A DNA stretch of 64,000 nucleotides from sequence record MN850651.1; one strand, written 5' to 3'. Shown piece after piece: positions 13,544 to 60,492 of the stretch (its first letter is position 1; each line of letters opens with the position of its first letter). Both the position numbers and the translations under genes were made by a program. The notes below the pieces were generated by a model. That model was not told the origin of the DNA. It was given only the letters and a program-made list of their open reading frames with translations, and ran no database searches. The DNA is from Escherichia phage moskry.

Positions 13544-13561
13544 GGGAGACTTCGGTCTCCC
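13544..13561 (+). terminator. Intrinsic terminator after gene 23
   Basis: GGGAGAC-TTCG-GTCTCCC followed by ATTTTTGGTTTT. Confidence 0.8.
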
Positions 13562-13571
13562 ATTTTTGGTT

Positions 13572-13841
13572 TTATTTCTGTGCAATTTTGATGTAAGTTT
13601 TCAAAATATTTTGCCAATTAGGCATACCTTCTTGGATATATGCTGGAGAACCGTCTTTGTTTTTGAATGATGCAAGTTTATCAGTGGCCCAATAACCTTT
13701 AGCTCGAGCTTCAGAATCAACTTTCATCCATACTTTGTTGAAGGCATTACCATTAACTTTTGCACCATATTTTTCTACTAACTTAACTGCTTCAGCTTCC
13801 AGAACTTTTAAAGTATCTCGTAAGAAACGTGCTTTAGTCAT
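13572..13841 (-). CDS. Hypothetical small early protein at the position of T4 segD
   Basis: 89 aa minus-strand ORF inside the plus-strand late block; ATG preceded by GAGGAG; own early-type promoter upstream and hairpin downstream; no recognisable motif. Confidence 0.7.
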   Translation of the reverse strand: MTKARFLRDTLKVLEAEAVKLVEKYGAKVNGNAFNKVWMKVDSEARAKGYWATDKLASFKNKDGSPAYIQEGMPNWQNILKTYIKIAQK

Positions 13842-13869
13842 TTTGTTTACTCCTCTGTAGTTGATAAGT

Positions 13870-13901
13870 CTATAGTATCATATACCAAATACGTTGTAAA
13901 C
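13870..13901 (-). promoter_or_regulatory. Early-type promoter (GTTTAC-N17/18-TACTATAG) for the small gene between 23 and 24
   Basis: Minus strand reads GTTTAC aacgtatttggtatatga TACTATAG; same architecture recurs at 8 other loci. Confidence 0.6.
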
Positions 13902-13907
13902 AATCTT

Positions 13908-13915
13908 TATAAATA
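13908..13915 (+). promoter_or_regulatory. Late promoter TATAAATA upstream of gene 24
   Basis: Exact TATAAATA about 28 nt upstream of ATG. Confidence 0.7.
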
Positions 13916-13942
13916 ATCTATATCACATAAGGAAAAAATGCA

Positions 13943-15226
13943 ATGAGTAAAATCCAAAAATTATTGCGTGAATCTACAACGTCTACTAGCAACTCAATTG
14001 GTCGCCCAAATCTCGTTGCTTTGACTCGCGCTACGACTAAATTAATATATTCTGACATTGTAGCAACACAAAGAACTAATCAACCTGTTGCTGCTTTTTA
14101 TGGTATCAAATATCTTAACCCAGATAACGAATTCACATTTAAAACTGGCGCTACTTATGCGGGTGAAGCTGGATACGTAGACCGAGAAAAAATTACTGAG
14201 CTCACAGAAGAATCAAAAGTCACACTAAATAAAGGCGATTTTTTCAAATATAATAATATCGTCTATAAAGTGTTAGAAGATACACCATTTGCAGATATTC
14301 AAGAAAGTGATCTAGAATTAGCTCTTCAGATTGCAGTCGTTCATTTAAAGGTACGGTTATTTTCAGATGCAGCGGTAACAAGCAAATTTGAAAGCTCTGA
14401 TAGCGAAATTTCTGATGCAAGATTCCAGATTAATAAATGGCAAACTTCAGTCAAATCTCGTAAACTTAAAACTGGTCTCACGGTTGAATTAGCGCAAGAT
14501 TTGGAAGCGAATGGATTTGATGCCCCTAACTTCTTAGAAGATTTGCTTGCTACTGAAATGGCAGATGAAATTAATAAAGATATTCTTCAGTCTTTAATTA
14601 CTGTATCGAAACGTTATAAAGTTACTGGAATTACTGACACTGGATTTATTGACTTGAGCTATGCGTCAGCTCCAGAAGCAGGTCGTTCATTATATCGAAT
14701 GGTGTGTGAAATGGTATCACACATTCAAAAAGAGACAACTTATACTGCAACGTTTTGTGTAGCCTCAGCTCGTGCAGCTGCTATTCTTGCTGCTTCTGGT
14801 TGGTTAAAACATAAGCCAGAAGATGACAAGTATCTTTCACAAAATGCTTATGGATTCTTGGCAAATGGATTACCTCTTTACTGCGATACCAACAGCCCGT
14901 TAGATTATGTTATTGTGGGTGTTGTAGAAAATCTCGGCGAAAAAGAAATTGTAGGGTCCATCTTTTATGCTCCATACACTGAAGGAGTAGATTTAGATGA
15001 CCCAGAACATGTCGGTGCTTTTAAAGTTGTAGTTGATCCAGAAAGCTTGCAACCGTCTATCGGATTATTGGTTAGATATGCTTTATCAGCAAATCCTTAC
15101 ACAGTAGCAAAAGACGAAAAAGAAGCGAGAATAATTGATGGTGGGGACATGGATAAAATGGCAGGACGTTCAGACTTGTCTGTTTTACTCGGTGTTAAAT
15201 TGCCTAAAATTATTATAGATGAATAA
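13943..15226 (+). CDS. 24: Capsid vertex protein gp24
   Basis: 427 aa, same length as T4 gp24; gp23-like fold region. Confidence 0.95.
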   Translation: MSKIQKLLRESTTSTSNSIGRPNLVALTRATTKLIYSDIVATQRTNQPVAAFYGIKYLNPDNEFTFKTGATYAGEAGYVDREKITELTEESKVTLNKGDFFKYNNIVYKVLEDTPFADIQESDLELALQIAVVHLKVRLFSDAAVTSKFESSDSEISDARFQINKWQTSVKSRKLKTGLTVELAQDLEANGFDAPNFLEDLLATEMADEINKDILQSLITVSKRYKVTGITDTGFIDLSYASAPEAGRSLYRMVCEMVSHIQKETTYTATFCVASARAAAILAASGWLKHKPEDDKYLSQNAYGFLANGLPLYCDTNSPLDYVIVGVVENLGEKEIVGSIFYAPYTEGVDLDDPEHVGAFKVVVDPESLQPSIGLLVRYALSANPYTVAKDEKEARIIDGGDMDKMAGRSDLSVLLGVKLPKIIIDE

Positions 15227-15238
15227 ACAAAAAAAAAA

Positions 15239-15254
15239 GGGACCTTACGGTCCC
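15239..15254. terminator. Bidirectional terminator between gene 24 (+) and rnlB (-)
   Basis: A10-GGGACC-ttac-GGTCCC-T5. Confidence 0.8.
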
Positions 15255-15261
15255 TTTTTCG

Positions 15262-16260
15262 TTATGATACTAATTCAATCCATGCAGGACGCAGAACATC
15301 TTGCACCATTCTGACTAATTCTTTCTTAACAAGATTCGGATTATCAGATGATGTTAATACAATACCTTCACGAGAAGTTTCTTCCAGAATATCTTGAACA
15401 GTCAATCCCATCACTTTGCCAAAATCTTTTGGCGTTACAGTCCCAATCTTAGAAATCACATTATTAATACGATTTAATGTAACATAACAAGCTAGAACAT
15501 CAAGCAAGTTTTTGTCAGTTTCGGTTAATGGAACCTGAGTTTTAATAGGCTTATCAGACTTTTTCTTTTCACTGAATTTAGAGTTCTTGCACTTAATAGC
15601 TACACGAGTACCGTTTGGCAGCCATTTAGGGAAACAGGGCTTCAGAACATAACCTTCTGCCGTATTATCGCCAATAACATTAGCATCAAATACGCAATTA
15701 TTTGCTTCGACAAGGTCTTCCGATGCCGTGGCGTTATAAGCGGCTAAGACGGAATCAAGGTCATTTGGAATCATGATAAGAGAATCAAATGTTCCACGTC
15801 CAAGCATTGGTGCCATTTTAAAACCGAATTCATTACAGAAATCTTGCATTTCGTAATCGGTCAAATACGTATTATCACCACTTTCTGTATTGATAAGGAT
15901 ATCGAACACGTAAAAATCTTTTTCACCGTAGTCAACACCTTTCTGGATTCCACCACCAGCGAATTCACCGAATACTTGATATGATACGGCTCGAGCTGTG
16001 TACATGAATTCCTGAACGGCTTTAATAGCTTTATCATACTTCTTGAGTATGATTTCATAACCATAAAAATCTTCTGCTGGAAGAATAGGGCCTGTGCGCT
16101 TGGCGCATGTGACGTTGTCACGTTCAATTATTAACGAGAAGTTAGTCCCATGGATTTTCTCACGTGCTACCCAAACACCAGTAGTCAAACCATTAGTGTA
16201 GAGTTTTTCAATAAACTTAGAGTTGTAGTGGTTTTCAAGACTGCTGTATTTCTTAAACAT
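15262..16260 (-). CDS. rnlB: RNA ligase 2 (Rnl2)
   Basis: 332 aa; [20 protein letters not shown] and KIHGTNFS ligase motif I; T4 RnlB 334 aa. Confidence 0.93.
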
Positions 16261-16379
16261 AAATCACCATTATAAATAATAATATCAAAATAATTAGCAG
16301 AGACTCTGTCTCCGACCAGATGTTTAATTTGAATGGATAGAACCTAGATTCATTATACCATCAAAAAATGTAAAGCATA

Positions 16380-16631
16380 TTAGAACTTGATTTCTATCCA
16401 ATGACCATCACGCTGGTCGTGATTAATTTTATACTGAAAGCCATTATCACGTAACCACTGCCCGACTTGCTCAGTGATAGTTAAATCATTCTTTGACGGA
16501 TAGTATGTAAATTGTGTCTGGCCTTTATCAGCGGCTTTCTCTGCCATCACAGAGAAGTTAGTAATAAAATCACTCAACAAATTAGCTTTAGTGGCCAGAG
16601 CCCTTTCTCTTAATTCCTGTGCAAAACTCAT
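16380..16631 (-). CDS. Hypothetical protein (T4 24.2/24.3 region)
   Basis: 83 aa ORF with ATG start, between rnlB and hoc as in T4. Confidence 0.7.
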   Translation of the reverse strand: MSFAQELRERALATKANLLSDFITNFSVMAEKAADKGQTQFTYYPSKNDLTITEQVGQWLRDNGFQYKINHDQRDGHWIEIKF

Positions 16632-16822
16632 TTCTTCACCTTTTTGTTAATCAAACGTTTACGGTATACAACTTTTTCTTTTGCTTTAAACTTTGACCGA
16701 GCTGTCTCGGCTTTAGTCCATAGTAATCCAACTTCTTTAGGTTGTAAACCGATTTTTTGAGCAATTTCTACGAATGAAAATCCCGCCTCATGTAATGTAT
16801 AAACTTCAACTTCAGCTCTCAT
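16628..16822 (-). CDS. Small putative HTH DNA-binding protein (T4 24.3 region)
   Basis: Track ORF begins with TTG at 16828; first ATG two codons in (16822); HTH-like EAGFSFVEIAQKIGL; basic C-terminus. Confidence 0.6.
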   Translation of the reverse strand: MRAEVEVYTLHEAGFSFVEIAQKIGLQPKEVGLLWTKAETARSKFKAKEKVVYRKRLINKKVKK

Positions 16823-16901
16823 AATCAATCCCGTATTATTTGGTTTGTGCCATTATATACATCAATCTCAAGATGTGTTTTGTATGCTTTAAAAACGAAG
16901 A

Positions 16902-16919
16902 AAGGGGCCGAAGCCCCTT
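16902..16919 (-). terminator. Terminator hairpin after hoc
   Basis: Minus sense AAGGGGC-UUCG-GCCCCUU followed by U-rich tract. Confidence 0.7.
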
Positions 16920-16921
16920 GA

Positions 16922-18340
16922 TTATGGATATGTATAGATGATACCAGTTTCCAAAGCAGTTTTATGGATGATGTATCCATTACGTGATTCTTGAACATCA
17001 ACTTCTGGATAATCTTTCATCATCTTCTGAAGAGTGTAACGATGCAGGTAGTATTTACTATCTGGATCTTCAGTTTTCCAATCTTTACCTTCTTCAGTCA
17101 TTTTTTGGATTTCATCCATAACCCACCATCCGCACCAGATGTAAGCTGAAGTACGATGTGGAAGAGGATGAACATAAGGTAATTCACCTTCTGGTTCTGG
17201 AGCAACTTTATCGGTTACCTGAACTTGACCTTCTGCTGTAATAGTTTTGCTATCGTAATCAGTTGCAGTAATAGTTGCAGTAACTTCAATAGTTTGACTT
17301 CCAATAGATGAGGTATCAACGGTATATACATTAGTTGACCCTTCTACAGGAGAAGAATCTTTCTTCCATGAATACTCAATTTGCGCTTCTTCTGGAGCAT
17401 CAGTGACATTAGCGGTAAATGTAGCCGAAGCATCTTGCTGAACGTTAATAGAAGGAGGAGTCAATGTAACCCGTGGATTCATTGTCTTCTTATTAACCGT
17501 TAATGATACTTCATTCGAAGTAACTTCCTTTGCATCATAATCTGTCGCGGTTACTTGGGCTACACATTTAATTCTTTTTACCCCGCTTGTAGTCGGAGTA
17601 TAGCTAAATGTAGAGTTAGTTTCTCCACCAACCTGTGAATCATCTACATACCACTGATACGTAGCAGACGCTCCAACCGGTTGAGAAGCTAAGGCAGCAG
17701 TAAATTGAACTGGGGTTCCAATTACTCCGGCTGAAGGACTATTGGGAGTTACTGCCAACGTAGTTGTCTGTGTCTTTTTATTAACAGTCAGTGACACTTC
17801 ATTAGAAGTAACGCTTAGTGCGTCATAATCTGTTGCGGTTACTTGAGCCACACACTTAATTCTTTTTACCCCGCTTTCGGCAGGAGTGTAATTGAACGTA
17901 GCGTTAGTTGCTTCACCAACAGGAGAATCATCTACATACCATTGATAAGTAGCGTTTGCGCCTGATGGCTGCGAAGCTAAAGCGGCAGTAAATTGAATAG
18001 CTGTTCCTATTACTCCAGCGTCAGGGCTATTAGGAGTTACAGCTAAGGTAGTCGTTTGTGTCTTGTTTTGAACTGTGATAGTTGTAGTAGCTTCTGCTGT
18101 TTCAGCTTCAGCTTCTGGAACTGTATTTGTTGCAACTACTTTAATAGTCTTTTGACCGGCAGGTCCTTTTAGTACATAACTAAAAGTTGCTTCAGCTCCA
18201 TCTTGTGGAACATCATCCACAGACCAAGCATATGTAATAGGTCCATCTCCAGTTTGACCACTGGGTGTAGCAGTAAACTGCTTAGTCTCATCTATAACTC
18301 CAGTAGGTGTTTTAGGAGTTATATCAACTGTAAAAGCCAT
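16922..18340 (-). CDS. hoc: Hoc highly immunogenic outer capsid protein, 4 Ig-like domains
   Basis: 472 aa; Ig-like repeat units; T4 Hoc is 376 aa (3 Ig domains + capsid-binding domain); here one extra 96-aa domain. Confidence 0.9.
   Translation of the reverse strand: MAFTVDITPKTPTGVIDETKQFTATPSGQTGDGPITYAWSVDDVPQDGAEATFSYVLKGPAGQKTIKVVATNTVPEAEAETAEATTTITVQNKTQTTTLAVTPNSPDAGVIGTAIQFTAALASQPSGANATYQWYVDDSPVGEATNATFNYTPAESGVKRIKCVAQVTATDYDALSVTSNEVSLTVNKKTQTTTLAVTPNSPSAGVIGTPVQFTAALASQPVGASATYQWYVDDSQVGGETNSTFSYTPTTSGVKRIKCVAQVTATDYDAKEVTSNEVSLTVNKKTMNPRVTLTPPSINVQQDASATFTANVTDAPEEAQIEYSWKKDSSPVEGSTNVYTVDTSSIGSQTIEVTATITATDYDSKTITAEGQVQVTDKVAPEPEGELPYVHPLPHRTSAYIWCGWWVMDEIQKMTEEGKDWKTEDPDSKYYLHRYTLQKMMKDYPEVDVQESRNGYIIHKTALETGIIYTYP
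17489..18064 (-). repeat. Tandem direct duplication (2 x approx. 288 bp) inside hoc, each encoding one Ig-like domain
   Basis: Protein residues approx. 93-188 and 189-284 are near-identical (KTQTTTLAVTPNSP...VSLTVNK); corresponding DNA segments clearly similar by eye. Confidence 0.85.
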
Positions 18341-18349
18341 AACTTATCC

Positions 18350-19018
18350 TTATTTTAATGTTACGAAAGAAGAATTACGAGTTTCACGAATTAGAACTGA
18401 TCCATCGCGATTAATATAATAAATTAAGCTAAATAATGTTTGGTGAGCAGAAGCATGCACAAAACTAGTTGGGCGAGATTTCCAATCTGGGGTTTCGGCT
18501 ATCCATTGATAAATCCACCAAGGAACAGTAACATATCCTGGGCCTTTGCCTAATTTAATGAGTGTAGGACTAAAATTTTCAGGCAGAACAAATTTTACTT
18601 CTTTATTTACCTCTGGTTCAGGCTCTTTTTCGGATTCAACAATCTGAGTAATTGCTTCTTCGAATTTATCATGGTCGAATTCTTTTTCTTGTTCGACAAC
18701 TTCTAATACTTCAACTTGTTCTGTTGGAGAATCAAACAACAGAATAGCTTCTTCTTTAACTTCTTCGTTGGTGAAATTAACACCGTCCACATCATCTGCG
18801 GCAGTAATTAAATCGGTGATAGATAATCCATCAGTTTCAGGTAATGGTTCATCAGCCAGTGCGTTAAGAGCTTCTTCGATATCAATAACAATATTATCGA
18901 ATGATTTTGTTTTCTTAACACTAATGCCAAATTGTTCCGCGTATTCAAACAGTTTAGCTTTGGCTTCCTTTTTATCAGAAAGAGCACGTAACTCTTCAAT
19001 ATAGTCTTTATCGATCAT
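18350..19018 (-). CDS. inh: Inh, inhibitor of prohead protease
   Basis: 222 aa; C-terminal FVHASAHQTLFSLIYYINRDGSVLIRETRNSSFVTLK; position upstream of hoc as in T4 (Inh 226 aa). Confidence 0.85.
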   Translation of the reverse strand: MIDKDYIEELRALSDKKEAKAKLFEYAEQFGISVKKTKSFDNIVIDIEEALNALADEPLPETDGLSITDLITAADDVDGVNFTNEEVKEEAILLFDSPTEQVEVLEVVEQEKEFDHDKFEEAITQIVESEKEPEPEVNKEVKFVLPENFSPTLIKLGKGPGYVTVPWWIYQWIAETPDWKSRPTSFVHASAHQTLFSLIYYINRDGSVLIRETRNSSFVTLK

Positions 19019-19031
19019 GGTATTTCCTCAT

Positions 19032-19039
19032 TATAAATA
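19032..19039 (+). promoter_or_regulatory. Late promoter TATAAATA upstream of uvsW
   Basis: Exact TATAAATA about 30 nt upstream of uvsW ATG in the divergent inh/uvsW intergenic region. Confidence 0.7.
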
Positions 19040-19068
19040 TAACTATATTTATTACATGGTAATTTGAC

Positions 19069-20583
19069 ATGACTGACATTAAAGTACATTTTCATGATTT
19101 TAGTCACGTGCGCATTGAATGCGACGAAAGTACGTTTTACGAACTTCGTGACTTTTTTAGCTTTGAAGCTGACGGGTATAAATTTAACCCAAAATATCGC
19201 TATGGGCAATGGGATGGTAGAATTCGACTTTTAGATTACAATCGTTTGTTACCATATGGACTTGTAGGTCAAATAAAAAAGTTCTGTAACAATATGAGTT
19301 ATTCTGTATGGATTGACCCTAAAATCTTTGAGACTGAAGACCTTACCAGGGAAGATTTTGACGCATGGCTTTCTAAACAAGAAATTTATTCTGGCAACGC
19401 CAAAATTGAACCACATTGGTATCAAAAAGATGCAGTATATGAAGGACTAGTTAATCGTCGTCGAATTTTAAACCTTCCAACATCAGCAGGTAAATCACTA
19501 ATCCAAGCACTTTTAGCTCGATATTATCTAGAGAACTATGAAGGTAAAATTCTCATTATCGTCCCTACAACGGCATTGACAACTCAGATGGCTAATGATT
19601 TTGTTGATTATCGCTTGTTTAGTCATTCGATGATTAAGAAAATTGGCGGTGGTGCTGATAAAGCGGACAGAGCTAAAAACGACGCTCCAATTATTGTTGG
19701 CACATGGCAAACGGTAGTTAAGCAGCCTAAAGAATGGTTCTCTCAGTTCGGTATGATGATGAACGATGAATGCCACTTAGCAACAGGCAAAAGTATTTCT
19801 TCAATCATCTCAGGATTAAATAATTGCATGTTTAAATTCGGTTTATCCGGCTCATTAAGAGACGGAAAAGCCAATGTAATGCAGTATGTAGGCATGTTCG
19901 GCGAAATCTTCCGTCCTGTTAGCACGTCTAAATTAATGGAAGATGGACAGGTAACTGAGCTTAAGATTAATAGTATTTTCCTTCGTTATCCAGATGAATT
20001 CGCCATTAAATTAAAAGGTAAAACATACCAAGAAGAAGTTAAAATTATTACCGGACTAAAACGTCGTACAAAGTGGATTGCTCAACTTTCAGTCAAATTG
20101 GCTAAGAAAGACGAGAACGCCTTTGTAATGTTTAAACACGTTACACACGGTAAAGAAATATTTGAAGCTATTAAAGAGCTTGGATACGAAAAAGTTTATT
20201 ACGTATCAGGTGAAGTTGATACTGAAACACGTAACGCGCTTAAAGTCATGGCAGAAAATGGTAAAGGCATTATTATTGTCGCATCATACGGAGTATTCTC
20301 TACTGGTATTTCAGTCAAGAATCTTCATCATGTTATTTTTGCTCATGGTGTTAAATCAAAAATTATCGTACTTCAAACCGTAGGTCGTGTGCTTCGTAAG
20401 CACGGTTCTAAAGCTGTTGCTACAGTTTGGGATCTCATAGATGACGCAGGTGTAAAACCTAAATCATTAAATACTAAAAAGAAGTATACTCATCTTAATT
20501 ACTTGTTAAAACACGGTATTGATCGTATCCAACGTTACGCTGATGAGAAATTTAACTATGTAATGAAAACAATTAATTTATAA
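19069..20583 (+). CDS. uvsW: UvsW RNA-DNA/DNA-DNA helicase
   Basis: 504 aa; SF2 helicase motifs (PTSAGKS, DECH); T4 UvsW 503 aa. Confidence 0.93.
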   Translation: MTDIKVHFHDFSHVRIECDESTFYELRDFFSFEADGYKFNPKYRYGQWDGRIRLLDYNRLLPYGLVGQIKKFCNNMSYSVWIDPKIFETEDLTREDFDAWLSKQEIYSGNAKIEPHWYQKDAVYEGLVNRRRILNLPTSAGKSLIQALLARYYLENYEGKILIIVPTTALTTQMANDFVDYRLFSHSMIKKIGGGADKADRAKNDAPIIVGTWQTVVKQPKEWFSQFGMMMNDECHLATGKSISSIISGLNNCMFKFGLSGSLRDGKANVMQYVGMFGEIFRPVSTSKLMEDGQVTELKINSIFLRYPDEFAIKLKGKTYQEEVKIITGLKRRTKWIAQLSVKLAKKDENAFVMFKHVTHGKEIFEAIKELGYEKVYYVSGEVDTETRNALKVMAENGKGIIIVASYGVFSTGISVKNLHHVIFAHGVKSKIIVLQTVGRVLRKHGSKAVATVWDLIDDAGVKPKSLNTKKKYTHLNYLLKHGIDRIQRYADEKFNYVMKTINL

Positions 20584-20597
20584 GGGCTTCGGCCCTT
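20582..20597 (+). terminator. Hairpin after uvsW (UUCG tetraloop), directly before the uvsW.1 RBS
   Basis: AAGGGC-TTCG-GCCCTT; no U-run, so more likely an RNA-stability or partial terminator element. Confidence 0.45.
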
Positions 20598-20608
20598 AGG
20601 AGATAAAA

Positions 20609-20839: not shown

Positions 20840-20842
20840 TTA

Positions 20843-20876
20843 AAAAAAGGCCCGACCTTTTTGGAAGGGCCAAAAA
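20843..20876. terminator. Bidirectional terminator-like hairpin between uvsW.1 (+) and the uvsY.-2-like gene (-)
   Basis: A7-GGCCC...GGGCC-A5, flanked by A/T runs on both sides. Confidence 0.5.
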
Positions 20877-29139: not shown

Positions 29140-29145
29140 GAAAAA

Positions 29146-29163
29146 GGGAGACAACGTCTCCCT
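29146..29163. terminator. Bidirectional terminator between gene 54 (+) and the alt-region genes (-)
   Basis: AAAAA-GGGAGAC-aacg-GTCTCCC-TTTA. Confidence 0.7.
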
Positions 29164-29171
29164 TTATGGGT

Positions 29172-31650: not shown

Positions 31651-31668
31651 AAGAGCCCGAAGGCTCTT
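31651..31668 (-). terminator. Terminator hairpin overlapping the alt.1 stop
   Basis: Minus sense AAGAGCC-UUCG-GGCUCUU followed by UUUUGGC. Confidence 0.65.
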
Positions 31669-35340: not shown

Positions 35341-35955
35341 CTACTTAACGAAATTAATTTCTACCGGATGAACAACAGGTTGAGCAGTGATATATTGAGT
35401 AATTGCTTTCATGACTAGAGCTTCAGAACCAGGATTTTTCTCAACGAATTCACGTGCTTGGTTATGGGCTTCAAGTTCACTTAGTAAACCGGAACGTTGG
35501 CATCCACGGTCTTGAGTACCCTGTTCAGATAAAAAGACGACTATGTATTTTTCATCGTCATACGGTTTAGACGGTTGAGCAAATGTTCCTTTACTTCCAA
35601 AAGGAGAGTTATGACGCCACATCACGCCGTGAGGAGTTTCAACCTTCGTATATTCGTGCGGGCCATTTTTCTTAGTTTCTTGATGTGGAACTTCGTGGAC
35701 CTTAGGGTTAGGACATTCAATAAAATGCTCATCTAAATCGGTCGAGAATATTAAAGTAAAACAATTACTAAATTTACCAACACCTGCCTGATAAATTTTA
35801 CCTTCAGAAGTTCTAATTTCACAAACTGAGCCAGCATCAGTAACTTCTAAAACTTCAAAAGGCTCGATAAGGTCATATGAGAACATGTTTTTAAGGCGTG
35901 GAGTAATATCCCCATTTTTAAAATTCATTTTATAAAAAGTATTAACTTTAAACAT
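35341..35955 (-). CDS. Hypothetical early protein, 204 aa
   Basis: Long ORF with ATG start; hairpin upstream; no recognised motif. Confidence 0.75.
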   Translation of the reverse strand: MFKVNTFYKMNFKNGDITPRLKNMFSYDLIEPFEVLEVTDAGSVCEIRTSEGKIYQAGVGKFSNCFTLIFSTDLDEHFIECPNPKVHEVPHQETKKNGPHEYTKVETPHGVMWRHNSPFGSKGTFAQPSKPYDDEKYIVVFLSEQGTQDRGCQRSGLLSELEAHNQAREFVEKNPGSEALVMKAITQYITAQPVVHPVEINFVK

Positions 35956-35966: not shown

Positions 35967-35984
35967 TGGGAGCCGAAGCTCCCA
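35967..35984 (-). terminator. Intergenic hairpin (UUCG tetraloop) between two hypothetical early genes
   Basis: TGGGAGC-cgaa-GCTCCCA on plus strand; terminator or RNA processing/stability element. Confidence 0.5.
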
Positions 35985-36837: not shown

Positions 36838-36869
36838 TCTATAGTAACACCATCCTACAGGATAGTAAA
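36838..36869 (-). promoter_or_regulatory. Early-type promoter upstream of the 122-aa hypothetical gene
   Basis: GTTTAC-N18-TACTATAG on minus strand. Confidence 0.6.
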
Positions 36870-36907
36870 CATCTTTTTTAAACTTTTTCTGCCCTAAACG
36901 CACAAAA

Positions 36908-36925
36908 GGGAGACCGAAGTCTCCC
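36908..36925 (-). terminator. Intrinsic terminator after the 59-aa basic ORF
   Basis: Minus sense GGGAGAC-UUCG-GUCUCCC followed by UUUUGUG. Confidence 0.75.
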
Positions 36926-36930
36926 TAAAA

Positions 36931-37110
36931 TTATGCAACAACCTTTCCAAAACGAGAAGCATCATCTCGAAGAACTGCACGTGCTCTGCGCATGATCTTC
37001 TCAACTGTTTGATTAATACGAGAGTTCGACCCACGCTTGTATCCAGCGCGTTTAGAGGTACCATCAACTTTCTTTTCAACTGCTTTCTTTGCTTTAGCTT
37101 GTTTTGCCAT
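36931..37110 (-). CDS. Small highly basic protein, 59 aa (not in ORF track)
   Basis: Translated by hand: MAKQAKAKKAVEKKVDGTSKRAGYKRGSNSRINQTVEKIMRRARAVLRDDASRFGKVVA; followed by GGGAGAC-UUCG-GUCUCCC terminator hairpin; overlapping track ORFs 36894..37079(-) and 37009..37242(+) judged spurious; coordinates +/-2 nt. Confidence 0.6.
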   Translation of the reverse strand: MAKQAKAKKAVEKKVDGTSKRAGYKRGSNSRINQTVEKIMRRARAVLRDDASRFGKVVA

Positions 37111-45587: not shown

Positions 45588-45603
45588 GTGGGACCGAAGT
45601 CCC
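45588..45603 (-). terminator. Hairpin between nrdB and denA (UUCG tetraloop)
   Basis: GGGAC-cgaa-GTCCC on plus strand; short stem. Confidence 0.45.
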
Positions 45604-52090: not shown

Positions 52091-52121
52091 CTATAGTATC
52101 ATGTTTAAAGGAAAAGTAAAC
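52091..52121 (-). promoter_or_regulatory. Early-type promoter downstream of gene 32, driving the frd.3-frd-td operon
   Basis: GTTTAC-N17-TACTATAG on minus strand. Confidence 0.6.
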
Positions 52122-52152
52122 AACTTTTTCGGCAATTTACAGATACTCAAAA

Positions 52153-52170
52153 GGGAGACCGAAGTCTCCC
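52153..52170 (-). terminator. Intrinsic terminator after gene 32
   Basis: Minus sense GGGAGAC-UUCG-GUCUCCC followed by UUUUGAG. Confidence 0.8.
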
Positions 52171-52176: not shown

Positions 52177-53076
52177 TTATAGACCAGCTAACAGGTCATC
52201 GAGGTCGCCATCGTCAGAAGACGAGGAACTCATGAAGTCATCTTCAGTTTTTGCAGAACCAAAGGCTTCCATGTCTTTATCAAAATCATCAAGGTCAGAA
52301 GCAACTTTATCTGCAACAGAAGCTGCTGCGGCTGCTGCACCACCAAGAGCGGCAGTACCAAGAACTTGATTAAATTTAGTATTCAATTCTTCAAACGATT
52401 TGAACTTATCTTTAGAAGTCATTTCAGAAAGGTCGACCATTTGTTCGAACAATTCTTTTTGGAAAGATTCATCATCAATGTTTGGAATCGCAGATTGATT
52501 CAGGAATTTAGATTCATCGTAGTTACTGAAACCAGAAACCTGTTTAACTTTCAGCACAAAGTTAGCACCTTCCCATGGGCAAGTTACATCAACAGGAGTT
52601 TCACCCATTTCAGTATCGACTGCAATCATTGCATTGATTTTGTCCCAAATCTTTTTACCGAAACGATATTTGAATACTTTACCTTCATTATCTGGAGCTT
52701 GTGGGTCTTTAACAACCAGAATATTAGCCCAATAAGAAGTTTTACGTTTCAGTTGAGAATATTCAGTTTTGTTGGTATTGTACAGGTCATTTTTACTAAT
52801 GTACTGACATACAGGACAAGAGTCATAATCGCCGTGTGTAGATGAACAGGTTTCAATATACCATTTACCATTTTTCTTGAACCCGTGGTTAACAAGAATT
52901 GTAAACGGAAGTGCGTCATCTGTTTTTGCCGGCAGGAAACGAATTACCGCTTGACCATTACCGGATGCATCGAGTTTCAGCTTCCATTCACCTTTATCTT
53001 CTGAAGAGAAACCTTTGTTACCATTCAGTTTAGCCATCTGAGCTGCGAGGTCTGCGGTACTTTTACGTTTAAACAT
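52177..53076 (-). CDS. 32: Single-stranded DNA-binding protein gp32
   Basis: 299 aa; [36 protein letters not shown]; acidic C-terminus; T4 gp32 301 aa. Confidence 0.97.
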
Positions 53077-54182: not shown

Positions 54183-54429
54183 AAAGCTCGACTACCTCTT
54201 CATTTTCAGCTTCAAATTGGTCACGAGCGTCTTTATGATAAAGAGCTAACAAACGATTAAACATTTTTCCATCAACGCCAAGCTCTTCTTTAGCACGAGT
54301 ACGAATGTCTTTAATCAGTTCATTATAACCAGAAATTTTAAGTTTGTTATCGGAAGCTTCCTTGACTAGTTTAGCCAGTTCTTCACCATGCACATCTTGA
54401 TTAAATTCAACTGCTTCTTTCTTAGCCAT
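54160..54429 (-). CDS. dsbA: DsbA double-stranded DNA-binding protein (late transcription enhancer)
   Basis: Track ORF 95 aa; start at MAKKEAVEF gives 89 aa as in T4 DsbA, has GAGG SD and avoids overlap with rnh. Confidence 0.88.
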   Translation of the reverse strand: MAKKEAVEFNQDVHGEELAKLVKEASDNKLKISGYNELIKDIRTRAKEELGVDGKMFNRLLALYHKDARDQFEAENEEVVELYDTVFTK

Positions 54430-54436
54430 GTTTACC

Positions 54437-55354: not shown

Positions 55355-55384
55355 ATGAACCTCTTGTTCAGTTAGTCAACTTGT

Positions 55385-55416
55385 CTATAGTAACACACTC
55401 ATTTGAAAGCGTAAAC
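55385..55416 (-). promoter_or_regulatory. Early-type promoter upstream of rnh
   Basis: GTTTAC-N18-TACTATAG on minus strand in the rnh/34 divergent intergenic region. Confidence 0.6.
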
Positions 55417-55419
55417 TGG

Positions 55420-55427
55420 TATAAATA
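55420..55427 (+). promoter_or_regulatory. Late promoter TATAAATA upstream of gene 34
   Basis: Exact TATAAATA about 30 nt upstream of gene 34 ATG. Confidence 0.7.
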
Positions 55428-55457
55428 AGTATTATTGAAACAATAAAGGAAAAACGA

Positions 55458-58400
55458 ATGGCCGACATCAAACGTAAGTTCAGAGCCGAAGACGGTCTGG
55501 ACGCCGGTGGCGACAAGATTGTTAACGTAGCATTAGCCGACCGTACAGTAGGTACTGATGGCGTAAACGTTGACTTCCTGGTACAAGAAAACACCGTTCA
55601 AGTATATGATTCTACGCGTGGATATAACAAAGGATTTGTTGTTCTTTATGACAACCGTTTATATCAAGCAATAAATGATATCGTGTCTCCTTCCGGGGCA
55701 TTTAACCTTTTACAATGGCGTGCAGTTCGTACCGATGCACAATGGATAACTGTAGCTTCTGGGACTTATCAACTTTCTTCAGGTGAATCGATTTCGGTTA
55801 ACACCGGTGCCGGCAATGATATGGTTTTCACGTTGCCAAATGCGCCGGTTGATGGTGACACTATTGTTTTGGCTGATATTGGTGGAAGAACCGGGGCAGT
55901 TAAAGTACAGATTAACGCGTCTGTGCAGAGTATTTTAAACTTTAGAGGCGAACAAGTTCGTACAGTTTTAATGACGCGTCCGCGTTCACAACTAGTGTTT
56001 GTGTTTAGTAATCGTTTGTGGCAGATGTATATCATTGATTACGGTAAAGAATCAATCACTGTTACACCTGCTACACCATATCAAGCGCAAGCAAACGATT
56101 TTATTGTTCTTCGTTTTACTAGTGCAGCACCAATCAACATTACACTTCCACGTAATGCTAACAATGGTGATATAATCAGCCTAGTTGATTTAGATAAATT
56201 AAACCCACTGTATCATACGATTATTAAAACATTTGATGATACAACGTCTATTGGCGAAGTCGGGACTCATATCGTCGAAGGCAGAACTTCTTCTGACGCG
56301 TTTTTTGTTTTTGATGCTGCAAATAGTTTATGGCGTATATGGGAAGGCGACCAGAAATCACGTCTTCGTATTATCCGTACAGATTCAAATATTCGCCCAA
56401 ATGAAGAAGTTCTTATTTTTGGTACAAATAACGCTACAGCAGAAACTATTAACCTTACGCTTCCTACAGGAATTTTGACCGGTGACACTGTTAAAATTTC
56501 AATGAACTACATGCGTAAAGGCCAAACAGTAAAAATTAAAGCTGCCGAAGGTGATACAATTGCTTCTTCTGTCGCATTACTTCAGTTCCCTAAACGTTCT
56601 GAATATCCACCTGATGCTCAATGGGTCTCTGTTACTGAACTAGAATTCAATGGCACTACTTCATATGTTCCTGTATTAGAATTAGCGTATATCGAAGACA
56701 CCGATTCTGACACTCATTATTGGGTTGTGCAACAGAATGTCCCTACGGTAGAACGTGTTGATGCTGGAACTGATGCTACACGAGCTCGTTTAGGTGTTAT
56801 TGCTCTTGCTACTCAAGCGCAAGCAAATGTTGATTTAGAGAATACTCCAGCTAAAGAAGTGGCTATTACTCCTGAAACGTTGGCAAATCGTACAGCAACT
56901 GAAGCTCGACGTGGTATCGCTAAAATTGCTACAACAGCACAAGTTAACCAGAATTCCACAGCATCATTTGTGGACGATACCGTTGTTACGCCTAAAAAAC
57001 TAAATGAGCGTACAGCAACTGAAACTCGTCGTGGTCTTGCTGAAATTGCTACTCAGGCTGAAACTGATGCCGGTCTTGATGACACAACAATTATTACACC
57101 TAAGAAATTGCAGGCACGTCAGGGTTCTGAAACACTATCTGGTATAGTTAAATATGTATCAACTACTTCTGCTACACCTGCCGCGACTCGTGGAGCTGCA
57201 GGCACTAATGTTTATAATAAAGACACAACCACGTTAACTATTTCTCCTAAAGCCCTTGACCAATATAAAGCAACTTATGCTCAACAAGGTGCAGTAATTT
57301 TAGCTGTCGATAGTGAAGTAATTGCTGGACAATCTCAAGCAGGTTATTCTCATGCTGTAGTAACTCCTGAAACACTACATAAGAAAACTTCTACTGATGG
57401 ACGTATTGGTTTAATTGAAATTGCTACGCAAGCAGAAACTAATGCTGGGACTGATTATACGCGGGCAGTAACGCCTAAGACGTTAAATGATAGGAAAGCT
57501 ACGGAAGGATTATCCGGCATAGCCGAACTTGCTACGCAAGTTGAATTTGATACTGGAACTGATGATACTCGTATCTCGACTCCACTGAAAATTAAAACTC
57601 ATTTTGATTCTTCTGACCGTACCAGTGTTAATTCTGATTCCGGACTTATTGAAGAAGGAACCTTGTGGAACCATTATACTCTTGATATTTCTAAAGCAAA
57701 TGAAACACAACGTGGTACACTTCGCGTAGCGACTCAGGCAGAATCTAATGCAGGAACTTTAGATGATGTTCTTATTACTCCTAAAAAGCTTTTAGGGACT
57801 AAGTCCACTGAAACGTCTGAAGGTGTAATTAAGGTTGCTACTCGGGCTGAAACTGTAACAGGAACTTCTGCTAATACTGCTGTATCGCCTAAGAATTTAA
57901 AATGGATTGTCCAGAATGAACCAACATGGGCTGCTACTACGGCAATTCGTGGATTCGTTAAAACTTCATCCGGTTCTATTACATTCGTTGGTAATGATAC
58001 AGTTGGTTCAACACAACCTTTAGAATCATATGAAAAAAATAGCTATGCTATATCTCCATATGAATTAAACCGTGTACTTGCTAACTATTTGCCATTAAAA
58101 GCAAAAGCTGCTGACGCAAATTTATTAGATGGCATAGATTCATCTCAGTTCATTCGTAGGGATATTGCACAGACGGTTAATGGTTCACTAACCTTAACGA
58201 AACAAACTAATCTGAGTGCCCCTCTTGTATCATCTAGTACTGCTACGTTTGGTGGGTCAGTTTCGGCAAATAGTACATTAACTATTTCTAATACTGGAAC
58301 GGCAACTCGTCTGATTTTTGAGAAAGGACCTCAAACTGGAACTAATCCAGCACAGACGATGACTATCAGAGTTTGGGGAAATCAGTTTGGTGGCGGATCA

Positions 58401-59333
58401 GATACAACACGTTCCACTGTATTTGAAGTTGGTGATGAAACGTCTAATCATTTTTATTCTCAACGTAATAAAGATGGGAATATAGCGTTTAGCATTAATG
58501 GTACTGTGATGCCAATAAACATTAATGCTTCCGGTTTGATGAATGTTAATGGCGTTGCAACATTCGGTCGTTCAGTTACTGCTAATGGCGAATTCATTAG
58601 TAAGTCTGCAAATGCTTTCAGAGCAATTAGTGGTGATTACGGATTCTTTATTCGTAATGACGCTGCTAATACCTATTTTATGCTCACTGCATCAGGCGAT
58701 CAGACTGGCGGATTTAATGGATTACGTCCTTTAGCTATTAATAATGCATCCGGCCAAGTAACGATTGGTGAAGGCTTAATCATTGCCAAAGGTGCTACTA
58801 TAAATTCAGATGGTTTGACTGTTAACTCTAGAATTCGTTCTCAGGGTACTAAAACATCTGACTTATATACTCGTGCGCCAACATCCGATACTGTAGGATT
58901 CTGGTCAATTGATATTAATGATTCAGCCACTTATAACCAGTTCCCTGGTTATTTTAAAATGGTTGAAAAAACTAATGAAGTGTCTGGACTTCCATACTTA
59001 GAACGTGGTGAAGAAGTTAAATCTCCTGGTACTTTGACTCAATTTGGCAATACTCTTGATTCACTTTACCAAGATTGGATTACTTATCCAACAACTCCAG
59101 ACGCACGTACCACTCGCTGGACACGTACATGGCAGAAAACTAAAAATTCTTGGTCAAGTTTTGTTCAAGTATTTGATGGCGGAAACCCTCCTCAACCTTC
59201 TGATATTGGTGCTTTACCTTCTGATAATGCAACAATCGGAAACTTGACAATACGGGATTTCTTAAGGATTGGTAATGTCCGCGTTATTCCAGACCCTGTG
59301 AATAAATCTGTTAAATTCGAGTGGATTGAATAA
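55458..59333 (+). CDS. 34: Long tail fibre proximal subunit gp34
   Basis: 1291 aa; T4 gp34 1289 aa; late promoter upstream. Confidence 0.95.
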   Translation: MADIKRKFRAEDGLDAGGDKIVNVALADRTVGTDGVNVDFLVQENTVQVYDSTRGYNKGFVVLYDNRLYQAINDIVSPSGAFNLLQWRAVRTDAQWITVASGTYQLSSGESISVNTGAGNDMVFTLPNAPVDGDTIVLADIGGRTGAVKVQINASVQSILNFRGEQVRTVLMTRPRSQLVFVFSNRLWQMYIIDYGKESITVTPATPYQAQANDFIVLRFTSAAPINITLPRNANNGDIISLVDLDKLNPLYHTIIKTFDDTTSIGEVGTHIVEGRTSSDAFFVFDAANSLWRIWEGDQKSRLRIIRTDSNIRPNEEVLIFGTNNATAETINLTLPTGILTGDTVKISMNYMRKGQTVKIKAAEGDTIASSVALLQFPKRSEYPPDAQWVSVTELEFNGTTSYVPVLELAYIEDTDSDTHYWVVQQNVPTVERVDAGTDATRARLGVIALATQAQANVDLENTPAKEVAITPETLANRTATEARRGIAKIATTAQVNQNSTASFVDDTVVTPKKLNERTATETRRGLAEIATQAETDAGLDDTTIITPKKLQARQGSETLSGIVKYVSTTSATPAATRGAAGTNVYNKDTTTLTISPKALDQYKATYAQQGAVILAVDSEVIAGQSQAGYSHAVVTPETLHKKTSTDGRIGLIEIATQAETNAGTDYTRAVTPKTLNDRKATEGLSGIAELATQVEFDTGTDDTRISTPLKIKTHFDSSDRTSVNSDSGLIEEGTLWNHYTLDISKANETQRGTLRVATQAESNAGTLDDVLITPKKLLGTKSTETSEGVIKVATRAETVTGTSANTAVSPKNLKWIVQNEPTWAATTAIRGFVKTSSGSITFVGNDTVGSTQPLESYEKNSYAISPYELNRVLANYLPLKAKAADANLLDGIDSSQFIRRDIAQTVNGSLTLTKQTNLSAPLVSSSTATFGGSVSANSTLTISNTGTATRLIFEKGPQTGTNPAQTMTIRVWGNQFGGGSDTTRSTVFEVGDETSNHFYSQRNKDGNIAFSINGTVMPININASGLMNVNGVATFGRSVTANGEFISKSANAFRAISGDYGFFIRNDAANTYFMLTASGDQTGGFNGLRPLAINNASGQVTIGEGLIIAKGATINSDGLTVNSRIRSQGTKTSDLYTRAPTSDTVGFWSIDINDSATYNQFPGYFKMVEKTNEVSGLPYLERGEEVKSPGTLTQFGNTLDSLYQDWITYPTTPDARTTRWTRTWQKTKNSWSSFVQVFDGGNPPQPSDIGALPSDNATIGNLTIRDFLRIGNVRVIPDPVNKSVKFEWIE

Positions 59334-59341
59334 GAGGTATT

Positions 59342-60469
59342 ATGGAAAAATTTATGGCTAAGTTTGGACAAGGATACGTCCAAACGCCATTTTTATCGGA
59401 AAGCAATTCGGTACGATTTAAATTAAGCATAGCGGGCTCTTGTCCGCTATCAACATCTCCTGCTTATATTAAGTTCCAAGATAATCCACTTGGGTCCCAG
59501 GTTTTTTCTGTTGGATTAAACGTTCGTGTAATAAATCCTACAACAGGTGCAGTAGTTGAATCTAAGTCATATAATTTCTCTACTGAAAACGACGCCACGT
59601 CAAGTGCATTTGTTACTTTCATGGACGCATATGCTTCAAATTTTATATTTGCTCTTGTTACTAACGCTAAAACAAACTTTCCACCCGAAGTTCTTACATG
59701 GTTTAATAAAGCCGGAAGTTCTGCTATTCCATTAGCTCAACAAGTTTTAAATATAGTGGACATTTCTTATTCTGCGTTTTATATTTCTGGTAAGAATGCT
59801 ATAGCACTAGAACATATTAAGTATAGTAATAAGAAAACTTCAACCGACTATAGTACACCACTTGATGTTGTGTACGACACGATCGATGATATTGGTGCTA
59901 CCGGCTTCCCTAGACGTACGTACGAATCGACAGACACATTTTTATCTGCTGTTGGAGGTGCTAATAATGAAATTAAAAGGATGCCTACAACGTCCGTTAT
60001 TACACCTCTCACTGGGTATAAATTGAAGCCTGGAGATTTCCTTTATATGAAATTCCAACTAATGGCCGATGCCGATTTGTTAGCACAAGGGACGACGCGA
60101 CTTTCTATTCGTTTCTTTAAATCTCCTTCTACTTCACCTATTTCATCTAAGGATATAAACTTTGATGGGGCCGCAGGTGAATGGAAGATATATGAAGACT
60201 ACATAGAAATTCCTGCTGGTGCTGACGGGTTCACGATTTATTGTTATCGTACAGCTCCAGTCGGGCAAGGTGGATTAAGAAACGTTATATTCACTGAAGT
60301 ATCATGTAATGGAAGCGTTTCAAAACCTGCCGAGTTTGGTATAAATGGTATTCGTGTAAATTATGTTTCAGAATCTTTAAGTGCCCCAGACATAATGACA
60401 TTACCTACTCAATCTTCAACTGATACTGGTAAGGTATTTGGACAAGAATTTAAAGAAGCATCAGAATAA
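59342..60469 (+). CDS. 35: Long tail fibre hinge protein gp35
   Basis: 375 aa; T4 gp35 372 aa. Confidence 0.92.
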   Translation: MEKFMAKFGQGYVQTPFLSESNSVRFKLSIAGSCPLSTSPAYIKFQDNPLGSQVFSVGLNVRVINPTTGAVVESKSYNFSTENDATSSAFVTFMDAYASNFIFALVTNAKTNFPPEVLTWFNKAGSSAIPLAQQVLNIVDISYSAFYISGKNAIALEHIKYSNKKTSTDYSTPLDVVYDTIDDIGATGFPRRTYESTDTFLSAVGGANNEIKRMPTTSVITPLTGYKLKPGDFLYMKFQLMADADLLAQGTTRLSIRFFKSPSTSPISSKDINFDGAAGEWKIYEDYIEIPAGADGFTIYCYRTAPVGQGGLRNVIFTEVSCNGSVSKPAEFGINGIRVNYVSESLSAPDIMTLPTQSSTDTGKVFGQEFKEASE

Positions 60470-60474
60470 ATTTA

Positions 60475-60492
60475 GGGAGACTTCGGTCTCCC
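60475..60492 (+). terminator. Intrinsic terminator after gene 35
   Basis: GGGAGAC-TTCG-GTCTCCC followed by ATTTTTG. Confidence 0.8.

Follow-up and report, generated by a model that had tools for sequence, protein, structure and literature searches.

Why should one hairpin stem recur after several genes of a single phage genome, and what do the repeated hairpins do there? The window, i.e., the whole 64,000-nt stretch of Escherichia phage moskry DNA that we analyzed, is a segment of a Mosigvirus (RB69-like, T4-type) genome, for which a sequence-only reading had proposed that an identical 18-nt UUCG hairpin occupies five loci. A pattern search of the window for GGGAGAC-N4-GTCTCCC returned four exact matches versus 0.00 expected from 100 dinucleotide-preserving shuffles, placing the element far above what composition predicts. 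Two of these 18-mers carry TTCG on the plus strand (positions 13544-13561 and 60475-60492), and two carry CGAA (36908-36925 and 52153-52170), with UUCG on the minus strand, which is the coding strand there. The fifth copy, at 29146, is a 17-nt variant, GGGAGAC-AAC-GTCTCCC (loop GUU on the minus strand), such that the proposed identity holds for four copies but not for this triloop version. The heptamer GGGAGAC occurs 10 times on the two strands (2.75 expected), each time within one of the five hairpins. No additional copy of the 18-mer was found in the AV110 genome, our proxy for the remaining genome (99.4% identity to the window over the 3.4 kb compared). Scanned in full against Rfam at gathering thresholds, the window matched zero families, as expected because terminators are not curated there, and Pfam scans of small ORFs nearby yielded nothing informative.

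Location of the five hairpins

The hairpins lie 5 to 24 nt past stop codons in sense orientation, and all five copies are kept across the Mosigvirus records examined; within-genus variation was judged from RB69 and LR027383. The predicted gene 23 terminator (13543..13570, plus strand), whose hairpin lies 24 nt past the stop of gene 23 (11951..13519, plus strand), reads U-GGGAGAC-UUCG-GUCUCCC-A, an 8-bp stem followed by UUUUUGG. The same hairpin is found in RB69 and LR027383, and the stem at this site is GGGAGAC in JS98 and at least five further lineages, too. Between the convergent genes 54 (plus strand) and alt.-3 (minus strand), a predicted bidirectional terminator (29143..29165) has a 10-bp stem and a triloop, AAAGGGAGAC-AAC/GUU-GUCUCCCUUU, with the better U-run on the minus strand (UUUUUCUU); orthologues of this site in other genera have GGGAGAGC, GGAGAGC, or GGGAGCC stems, and their loops differ.

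On the minus strand, gene 30.9 (59 aa; 36931..37110) is followed by A-GGGAGAC-UUCG-GUCUCCC-U and then UUUG (36904..36926). The sequence of this hairpin is present in 150 Mosigvirus records, and an identical sequence in the PhAPEC2 record is labeled "terminator" (ARNold); this copy was missed by a simple terminator scan. Gene 32 (52177..53076, minus strand) is likewise followed by GGGAGAC-UUCG-GUCUCCC and UUUUG (52149..52170, minus strand), and the RB69 gene 32 hairpin is the same with one additional base pair. Downstream of gene 35 (59342..60469, plus strand), a predicted terminator is combined with a late promoter (60475..60507, plus strand): GGGAGAC-UUCG-GUCUCCC and AUUUUUG are followed by TATAAATA (60500-60507), the late promoter for gene 36, which adjoins the hairpin. 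In the SA35RD record, the identical gene 35 sequence is labeled "rho-independent terminator" and "T4-late promoter".

Predicted function as intrinsic terminators

It is very likely, judging from sequence features, that the five elements are Rho-independent (intrinsic) terminators of a T4-type phage, which also protect 3' ends. The earlier designation as terminator hairpins is backed by anatomy, orientation, orthology to T4 terminators, and existing public annotation, the last being computational and in relatives. The stems comprise 7 to 10 bp with five G-C pairs and enclose loops of 4 or 3 nt, as in intrinsic terminators; each copy is followed by a U-tract (UUUUUGG, UUUUG, UUUUG, AUUUUUG, and UUUUUCUU, all short) and stands in sense position downstream of a gene end. 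The cUUCGg tetraloop with its C-G closing pair is found at 13544, 36908, 52153, and 60475 but not at 29146. In context, the 18-mer hairpin is the minimum-free-energy structure (-12.0 kcal/mol). In all nine G/C-rich UUCG hairpins of the window, the loop reads UUCG on the coding strand of the immediately preceding gene, and among the IMG/VR matches listed, 96 of 111 distinct occurrences of the 18-mer have at least five T in the next 8 nt, read in the UUCG orientation.

By the intrinsic-terminator mechanism (reviewed in PMC2988021), once host RNA polymerase has moved beyond the stop codon, the nascent RNA would fold into the 7- to 10-bp G-rich stem, capped in four cases by the exceptionally stable, fast-folding cUUCGg tetraloop, and the weak rU:dA hybrid at the short U-run directly 3' of the stem would be released. 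Transcripts ending at the hairpin, or trimmed back to it, would resist 3'->5' exonucleases. The 29146 copy would serve two convergent transcription units, and the gene 35 copy would abut the gene 36 late promoter. Our hairpins resemble the Rho-independent terminators of E. coli and its phages in their G/C-rich stem, purine-rich 5' arm, U-run, and location a few nucleotides past the stop codon, as well as in the bidirectional version between convergent genes, but their U-runs are short (4 to 5 U). Termination is therefore probably partial, and read-through may be substantial at U-runs that are both short and interrupted (UUUUG, AUUUUUG).

This class of element is already known, in T4 since 1988, and the hairpins are already annotated as terminators in public Mosigvirus records. 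T4 intergenic regions are rich in CUUCGG hairpins (Tuerk et al. 1988, PNAS 85:1364, as cited in PMC8948821; PMC4371310). The T4 C(UUCG)G hairpins share with ours the G/C stem, C-G closing pair, UUCG loop, and intergenic position after genes, and in T4, too, the sites orthologous to those of genes 23, 30.9, and 35 are occupied by UUCG hairpins. In contrast, T4 stems differ in sequence, include zero GGGAGAC copies, and are repeated in pairs only, whereas here one stem stands at four sites. The sole unusual feature is one stem sequence at several sites of one genome. In having the same short palindrome at many 3' ends per genome, bacterial repeat terminators (e.g., inverted uptake-signal sequences and REP-type palindromes) are similar; however, there are only 4 to 5 copies here, with no known sequence-specific machinery, and each is orthologous to a hairpin of other sequence in relatives.

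Promoter cassettes and homology breakpoints

In practice, the hairpins confirm Mosigvirus gene boundaries and transcription-unit structure, and they flag two terminator-plus-early-promoter cassettes in addition to the terminator-plus-late-promoter composite after gene 35. Judging from sequence arrangement, the hairpins after genes 30.9 and 32 each form the upstream half of a PeSL-like cassette. The gene 30.9 hairpin is separated by 38 nt from a downstream T4-type early promoter match, TTTACT-N17-TACTAT (36841..36869, minus strand), after which come the Shine-Dalgarno sequence and start ATG of gene 30.8 (GGAGAATAAAATG). For gene 32, the spacing from the hairpin to the downstream match, TTTACT-N16-TACTAT (52093..52120, minus strand), is 32 nt, and this cassette ends with the Shine-Dalgarno sequence and start codon of an 83-aa ORF (GAGAGGAAAATAAAATG). 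The two cassettes have GAAAAAGTT, GTTTACT, and TACTATAGACTT in common. Matches to the T4-type early consensus TTTACW-N15-18-TAYWAT number 11 in the window (1.26 expected); a generic sigma70 scan found no promoters after the gene 30.9 or gene 32 hairpins, whereas this T4-specific consensus did match.

Both cassettes fit the PST/T4 PeSL consensus of stem-loop, A-rich stretch, TTTACT-N16/17-TACTAT, Shine-Dalgarno sequence, and ATG (PMC2839356; Comeau et al. 2014, PMC4122927), and PeSL stem-loops terminated in lacZ fusions (Arbiol et al. 2010, PMC2839356). A further likeness is that the gene 30.7 hairpin here marks a module junction. In contrast, the gene 23, 35, and 54 copies, which belong to the late region or separate convergent genes, have no early promoter, and our sites stand beside conserved core genes, whereas PeSLs occur in dense hyperplastic regions.

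PeSL recombination is documented in T4-like phages (PMC2839356), which lends precedent to the earlier suggestion that the copies are substrates for illegitimate recombination; yet, our breakpoint comparison with RB69 and T4 revealed no rearrangement between GGGAGAC copies. Breakpoints relative to RB69 coincide with none of the copies. Homology to T4 runs 6 nt past the gene 23 hairpin before it stops, and it also disappears around the 3' end of gene 32; 18 nt downstream from the gene 30.7 hairpin, there is a breakpoint common to the comparisons with RB69 and T4.

Stem turnover at orthologous sites

In T4, genes 23, 30.9, 32, 35, and 54 are each followed, at the matching position, by a hairpin-plus-U-run terminator with a different stem. 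Across about 30 T4-like lineages, flanks are alignable site by site, and stems (GGGACUC, GGACUCC, GGGAACC, and others) differ by double, pairing-preserving changes, with changes on both sides of the stem in 5 of 8 pairs; the percentage of paired positions in the stem alignment is circular, because that alignment was built from perfect hairpins. Predicted energies are -12.0 kcal/mol for GGGAGAC, GGGACUC, GGACUCC, and GGAGGAC alike and -14.1 kcal/mol for GGGAGCC. GGGAGAC is hence no thermodynamic optimum, being tied with three stems and weaker than a fourth, and given equal-energy stems at orthologous sites, thermodynamics does not explain the identity seen here. Strong selection for a stable structure, one of two causes offered by the sequence-only reading, accounts for the hairpin being kept at each site, in line with the compensatory stem differences between genera, but leaves the identity unexplained.

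Serratia phage CHI14 and Escherichia phage EcS1 have GGGAGAC at the same four sites (23, 30.9, 32, and 35). In a gp18+gp20+gp23 neighbor-joining tree (three proteins, unbootstrapped), they are not sister to Mosigvirus; T4 is the sister of the window and is without GGGAGAC. Recent horizontal transfer of cassettes from a CHI14-like phage was rejected, as the window's flanks are not CHI14-like at any site. The contigs L129, L147, L172, and L205-208 were considered as close Mosigvirus relatives and discarded, as k-mer clustering joins them to T4. Distant environmental T4-like loci (689 kb) contain 18 UUCG hairpins and zero GGGAGAC, giving no support to a universal preference. Counts in IMG/VR likewise do not show that the 18-mer is specially favored across viruses: GGGAGAC and the control GGGACUC each reach at least 120. 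The wider interest is evolutionary only: orthologous terminators change their stems but not their place or fold, and the same stem stands at the same four sites in two separate lineages.

Origin of the repeated stem

Most likely, the stems are identical as a side effect of the way in which these hairpins evolve. The hairpins would be drawn from a limited set of G-rich stems with common outer GGGA/UCCC arms, compensatory change would keep pairing perfect, and the inner base pairs would have been homogenized in this lineage, probably by short-tract copying between terminators. The excess identity and its recurrence in a non-sister lineage hint at such homogenization, and short-tract gene conversion or template switching, seeded by the GGGA...UCCC arms and the U-run, is a possible way in which the gene 23-type stem was copied to other sites. 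Identical pairs within the same genome number 26 versus 7.6 in site-wise shuffles, and with the window taken by itself, p is about 0.007 for a genome that has at least four identical sites. Only at the gene 23 site is GGGAGAC widespread and its presence probably ancestral; the gene 30.9 site is GGGACUC(C) in most lineages. GGGAGAC fills the four sites in CHI14 and EcS1 and none in the sister T4. Selection for stability does not force identity because equal-energy stems exist, and T4 recombination, with PeSL recombination on record (PMC2839356), needs just short homology. On the other hand, no conversion tract can be delimited, and flanks vary between copies. The whole excess comes from two lineages, minus which the count is 4 versus 1.7 (p = 0.09); the shuffle null is blind to finer phylogenetic structure, the supporting tree is the unbootstrapped one, and only perfect stems are detectable. 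Spread by recombination, the second cause offered earlier, is plausible solely as very short-tract homogenization: at every site, the flanking sequence has its orthologue in other genera, and the copies share no more than about 25 to 38 low-complexity nt with one another. Copying of this kind addresses stem identity, not hairpin function.

The broader proposition, that T4-like terminators are in concerted evolution and that homology-seeded copying homogenized the 23, 30.9, 32, and 35 stems to GGGAGAC-UUCG independently in Mosigvirus and Winklervirus/EcS1, is possible but doubtful. If copying is true, phage regulatory hairpins would form a small family, present in several copies, with sequence passing between members inside one genome, and the PeSL idea would apply to the regulatory elements as well as to gene shuffling.

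It is possible, if rather unlikely, that chance in a small sequence space acted together with purifying selection, i.e., that sites coincided in one of few G-rich stem forms and were then conserved. About eight core stems cover most sites in 32 lineages, 5' arms are purine-rich (an arm-flipped equal-energy control is rarer, at 47 IMG/VR stretches versus at least 120), T4 repeats stems, too, albeit only in pairs (soc = 30.9; 23 nearly = 35), and the conservation of the five copies within Mosigvirus agrees with this explanation. However, site-wise shuffles that keep the stem repertoire seldom yield at least four identical sites (null mean, 0.007-0.08 genomes), and another lineage shows the same coincidence at these very sites.

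That a phage or host factor (RNA-binding protein, nuclease, or recombination protein) recognizes GGGAGAC-UUCG, making the exact sequence and not only the fold matter, appears improbable. The exact 18-mer does occur in at least 120 unrelated viral contigs and at non-orthologous sites in other genera, e.g., after wac in Klebsiella phage F48, and the stem contains GGAG, the RegB cleavage motif, which counts in favor of such recognition. Nevertheless, the alternative 18-mer GGGACUC-UUCG is equally widespread (at least 120), and close relatives are functional with different stems at these positions. Also counting against recognition, no binding protein is known for cUUCGg loops (PMC4371310).

Insertion of a miniature palindromic repeat at five places, with the hairpins as remnants or target sites, is very improbable: copies share 29 of 30 to 34 of 38 nt, flanks included, and homology breakpoints adjoin the gene 23 (versus T4) and gene 30.7 (versus RB69 and T4) hairpins, but what the flanks share is stop codon plus A/T, U-run, and promoter, sequence of low complexity under functional constraint; target-site duplications and copies elsewhere in the genome are absent; and at every copy's position, an orthologous hairpin with flanks that can be aligned exists in other genera, which points to stem replacement, not insertion.

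Related hairpins with other stems

The sequence-only reading had also listed G/C-stem UUCG hairpins after hoc, alt.1, uvsW, and gene 24, and the first three were recovered as such. The hoc hairpin (16902..16919, minus strand; AAGGGGC-UUCG-GCCCCUU) has an identical counterpart in T4; the alt.1 hairpin (31651..31668, minus strand) is AAGAGCC-UUCG-GGCUCUU followed by UUUGG; and the uvsW hairpin (20581..20598, plus strand; UAAGGGC-UUCG-GCCCUUA) overlaps the uvsW stop codon and has no U-run, GGAG and the uvsW.1 ATG coming next. The gene 24 element is instead a predicted bidirectional terminator between gene 24 and rnlB (15234..15259, A5-GGGACC-GUAA/UUAC-GGUCCC-U5), whose loop is UUAC in the gene 24 sense and GUAA in the rnlB sense. 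Two UUCG hairpins were absent from that list: one after 30.7 (35967..35984, minus strand; UGGGAGC-UUCG-GCUCCCA), which has a weak U-run and a stem equal to GGGAGAC less one base pair (GGGAGC), and a short one after nrdB (45590..45603, minus strand; GGGAC-UUCG-GUCCC), the CHI14 orthologue of which is GGGAGAC.

Copies of the hairpin in the window

Around gene 23, a 3.4-kb piece of the window matches many genomes of Mosigvirus (RB69-like, Tevenvirinae) at 98-99.4% identity, that of Escherichia phage AV110 most closely; gene names are those of LR027383.1 and RB69, which are annotated in T4 style. The pattern search proposed in the sequence-only reading, run here on the window, placed the element above shuffle expectation, as GGGAGAC-N4-GTCTCCC matched four times in the window versus zero times in 100 dinucleotide-preserving shuffles. 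These copies follow gene 23 (major capsid protein; 13544), gene 30.9 (that reading's 59-aa basic ORF; 36908), gene 32 (ssDNA-binding protein; 52153), and gene 35 (tail-fibre connector; 60475), with TTCG on the + strand at 13544 and 60475, and CGAA on the + strand, hence UUCG on the - (coding) strand, at 36908 and 52153. The fifth element (29146), between gene 54 and the convergent alt.-3, has the same arms around a 3-nt loop (AAC; GUU on the - strand), flanking A3/U3 lengthening its stem to 10 bp, and is therefore not a UUCG tetraloop. Thus, the earlier claim of one hairpin at five loci is exact for four of them. The arms of these five hairpins account for all 10 GGGAGAC heptamers present on the two strands (2.75 expected). 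Related UUCG hairpins had been described after hoc, alt.1, uvsW, and gene 24; the first three are present, but gene 24 has a UUAC/GUAA loop, and those after 30.7 and nrdB had been overlooked. Using AV110 as a proxy for the rest of the genome, we found no GGGAGAC hairpin beyond the known copies in its other 110 kb, so all copies are confined to 47 kb.

The hairpins as intrinsic terminators

At each locus, the hairpin starts 5-24 nt past the stop codon, constitutes the predicted local minimum-free-energy structure (bare 18-mer, predicted -12.0 kcal/mol), and is directly followed by a short U-run. The window has nine G/C-rich UUCG hairpins, and every one of them reads UUCG on the coding strand of the gene just upstream. 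A hairpin plus U-run is the textbook intrinsic termination mechanism (PMC2988021), and exceptionally stable CUUCGG hairpins are abundant in T4 intergenic regions (Tuerk et al. 1988, summarised in PMC8948821 and PMC4371310). The PhAPEC2 record (Mosigvirus) labels an identical sequence "putative terminator determined with ARNold," and the SA35RD record (Mosigvirus) labels another "rho-independent terminator," followed by "T4-late promoter." The hairpins matched no Rfam family. Orientation, U-run, T4 hairpins at orthologous sites, and public annotation together uphold the proposed terminator function, and we have high confidence that these elements are intrinsic terminators or hairpins that stabilise 3' ends, a kind described long ago; records of close relatives already label the very same sequences as terminators. 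Their short U-runs suggest partial read-through at these predicted terminators.

The uvsW UUCG hairpin (20581-20598) lacks a U-run and overlaps the uvsW stop codon, with GGAG and the uvsW.1 start codon (ATG, 20609) directly after it. This hairpin is an improbable terminator; translational coupling, RNA processing, and stability are candidate roles.

Promoter partners

The T4-type early-promoter pattern TTTACW-N17-TAYWAT, taken from Comeau et al., matched 11 times in the window (1.26 expected), 10 of these on the - strand. Matches lie 38 nt (gene 30.9) and 32 nt (gene 32) downstream of the hairpins, and a Shine-Dalgarno sequence and ATG follow in both cassettes, so these two copies fit the published architecture of PeSL (promoter-early stem-loop) cassettes; they have the patches GAAAAAGTT, GTTTACT, and TACTATAGACTT in common. 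The gene 35 hairpin is followed by AUUUUUG and then by the late promoter TATAAATA (60500-60507), and the 29146 element has a U-run on each strand, the better one on the - strand.

The same terminator and late-promoter layout as after gene 35 occurs after gene 18 (7537-7565), where hairpin ATGGGCTA-TTTCGG-TAGCCCAT directly adjoins TATAAATA (7558-7565). Early-promoter matches on the - strand (e.g., 29523-29495, 40456-40428, and 43987-43959) also have a common extended -10 block, GTGATACTAT or GTGTTACTAT, which reaches well past the searched consensus and is a tightly conserved Mosigvirus form of the early promoter.

Module junctions

The copies had also been suggested as substrates for illegitimate recombination. 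In the alignment of the window with RB69, no GGGAGAC copy coincides with a breakpoint. The UUCG hairpin after gene 30.7 does have one nearby, 18 nt downstream in the - sense, and since the RB69 and T4 alignments both resume there (35949), a module junction sits right at this terminator. The segment 35103-35948, absent from RB69 and T4, encodes a 204-aa ORF (35341..35955, - strand) with no Pfam match. T4 homology stops 6 nt past the gene 23 hairpin, where T4 has the homing-endonuclease gene segD and the window (13568-13893) an 89-aa ORF (13572..13841, - strand), for which a separate early-promoter match lies at 13900-13872; T4 homology is also lost around the gene 32 3' end. This pattern fits the published picture in T4-like phages, in which terminator/promoter cassettes bound exchangeable modules, and is equally as expected of any intergenic junction. 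Neither the RB69 nor the T4 alignment revealed a rearrangement between GGGAGAC copies.

The RB69 alignment also breaks within hoc (17197-18000), an outer-capsid decoration gene that is mosaic within the genus (472 aa in the window versus 376 aa annotated in LR027383.1).

Stems at orthologous sites

RB69 and LR027383 carry the same hairpins as the window, except at gene 35 of RB69 (GGAGAC, in a tail-fibre region only 77% identical); the gene 30.9 cassette occurs in 150 records and that of gene 35 in about 108. T4 has hairpin and U-run elements at all five orthologous positions, namely, GGGAACC-UUCG (gene 23), GGACUCC-UUCG (gene 30.9), GGGGACC-CUAGA (gene 32), GGGACCC-UUCG-GGUUCCC (gene 35), and GGGGACC-GAAA-GGUCCAU (gene 54). 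For wider comparison, we took ±10 kb around gp23, gp30, and gp32 homologues in IMG/VR, called perfect stems on both strands, assigned sites by blastx of the sequence upstream of each hairpin against the window's ORFs, and clustered the genomes by shared k-mers into 32 lineages. Flanks are alignable across genera at each site (e.g., gene 30.9, ...GCATAAGTTAT[hairpin]ATTTTTGT), and the stems come in a limited set of G-rich forms (GGGAGAC, GGGACUC, GGACUCC, GGGAACC, GGGACC, GGAGCC, GGGAGCC, and GGGAGAGC) around loops that are mostly UUCG and sometimes UACG, GCAA, GAAA, or CUAGU. In a gap-free alignment of 21 hairpins, five of the eight pairs had two-sided changes; the 97.6% pairing there is circular, because members were detected as perfect repeats. 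What is informative is that the stems at orthologous sites differ yet are fully paired.

In T4 (contigs L125-L128), stem reuse is pairwise: soc and 30.9 are both followed by GGACUCC-UUCG, and gene 23 by GGGAACC-UUCG, which recurs with one mismatch behind gene 35 (15303-15324 and 130340-130359; 106536-106555 and about 155813-155830). In Klebsiella phage vB_Kpn_F48 (Marfavirus; contig L582, 608-640), a GGGAGAC-UUCG hairpin with ATTTTTG and TATAAATA (43 nt, 95% identity) follows wac (fibritin); this site belongs to another genus and is not orthologous, and the cluster with contig 2974546015 has the same hairpin and late-promoter composite after wac.

Stem identity against a shuffle null

Against site-wise shuffles that preserve each site's stem repertoire and treat lineages as independent, same-genome identical pairs were in excess across the 32 lineages (26 observed, 7.6 under the null; p = 1-2e-4), as were lineages with at least four identical sites (3 versus 0.08; p = 1e-4). 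Three genomes supply 22 of the 26 pairs: the window (genes 23, 30.9, 32, and 35), Serratia phage CHI14 (the same four plus nrdB), and Escherichia phage EcS1 (the same four plus one further, unassigned site). As CHI14 and EcS1 are related, the independent lineages number two. Without these two phages, the window's four-fold identity still stood out (1 genome versus 0.007; p about 0.007); without all three, four pairs remained (1.7 expected; p = 0.09). An unbootstrapped neighbour-joining tree (gp18+gp20+gp23) makes T4 the window's sister and places CHI14 in another clade with JS98. Since T4 has no GGGAGAC hairpin at all, and GGGAGAC is widespread at the gene 23 site only, with GGGACUC(C) at gene 30.9 in most lineages, the four-site pattern implies either two acquisitions or many losses. 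Recent transfer from a CHI14-like phage is argued against by the window's flanks, which are not CHI14-like. What is modestly new is the use of a single stem at four or five sites, more than the constrained null predicts, together with the recurrence of this use in a second lineage; this hints at concerted evolution of terminators.

Possible causes of identity

Selection for a stable structure had been offered as one of two causes; predicted stability does not single out GGGAGAC, its energy equalling that of GGGACUC, GGACUCC, and GGAGGAC, and GGGAGCC being more stable. At least 120 unrelated contigs in IMG/VR (GC 30 to 63%) have the exact 18-mer, with a T-run after it in the UUCG orientation in 86% of distinct contexts among the matches listed. 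The GGGACUC 18-mer likewise reaches at least 120, and the arm-flipped hairpin of the same energy 47 stretches, so a family with a purine-rich 5' arm appears to be favoured, not GGGAGAC itself.

The window copies have 25-38 nt in common at about 90-100% identity, the common flanks (stop codon plus A/T, U-run, and promoter) all being functionally constrained. We tentatively rank first, though as less likely than not, short-tract homogenisation between terminators already alike in their outer GGGA/UCCC arms and U-run: T4-type recombination works with little homology, and template switching at quasipalindromes, which Ripley and co-workers reportedly described in T4, yields compensatory changes in one step. 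A close second is chance agreement within a small sequence space that was afterwards conserved, and whatever likelihood is left falls to retention from an ancestor or to selection on this exact sequence.
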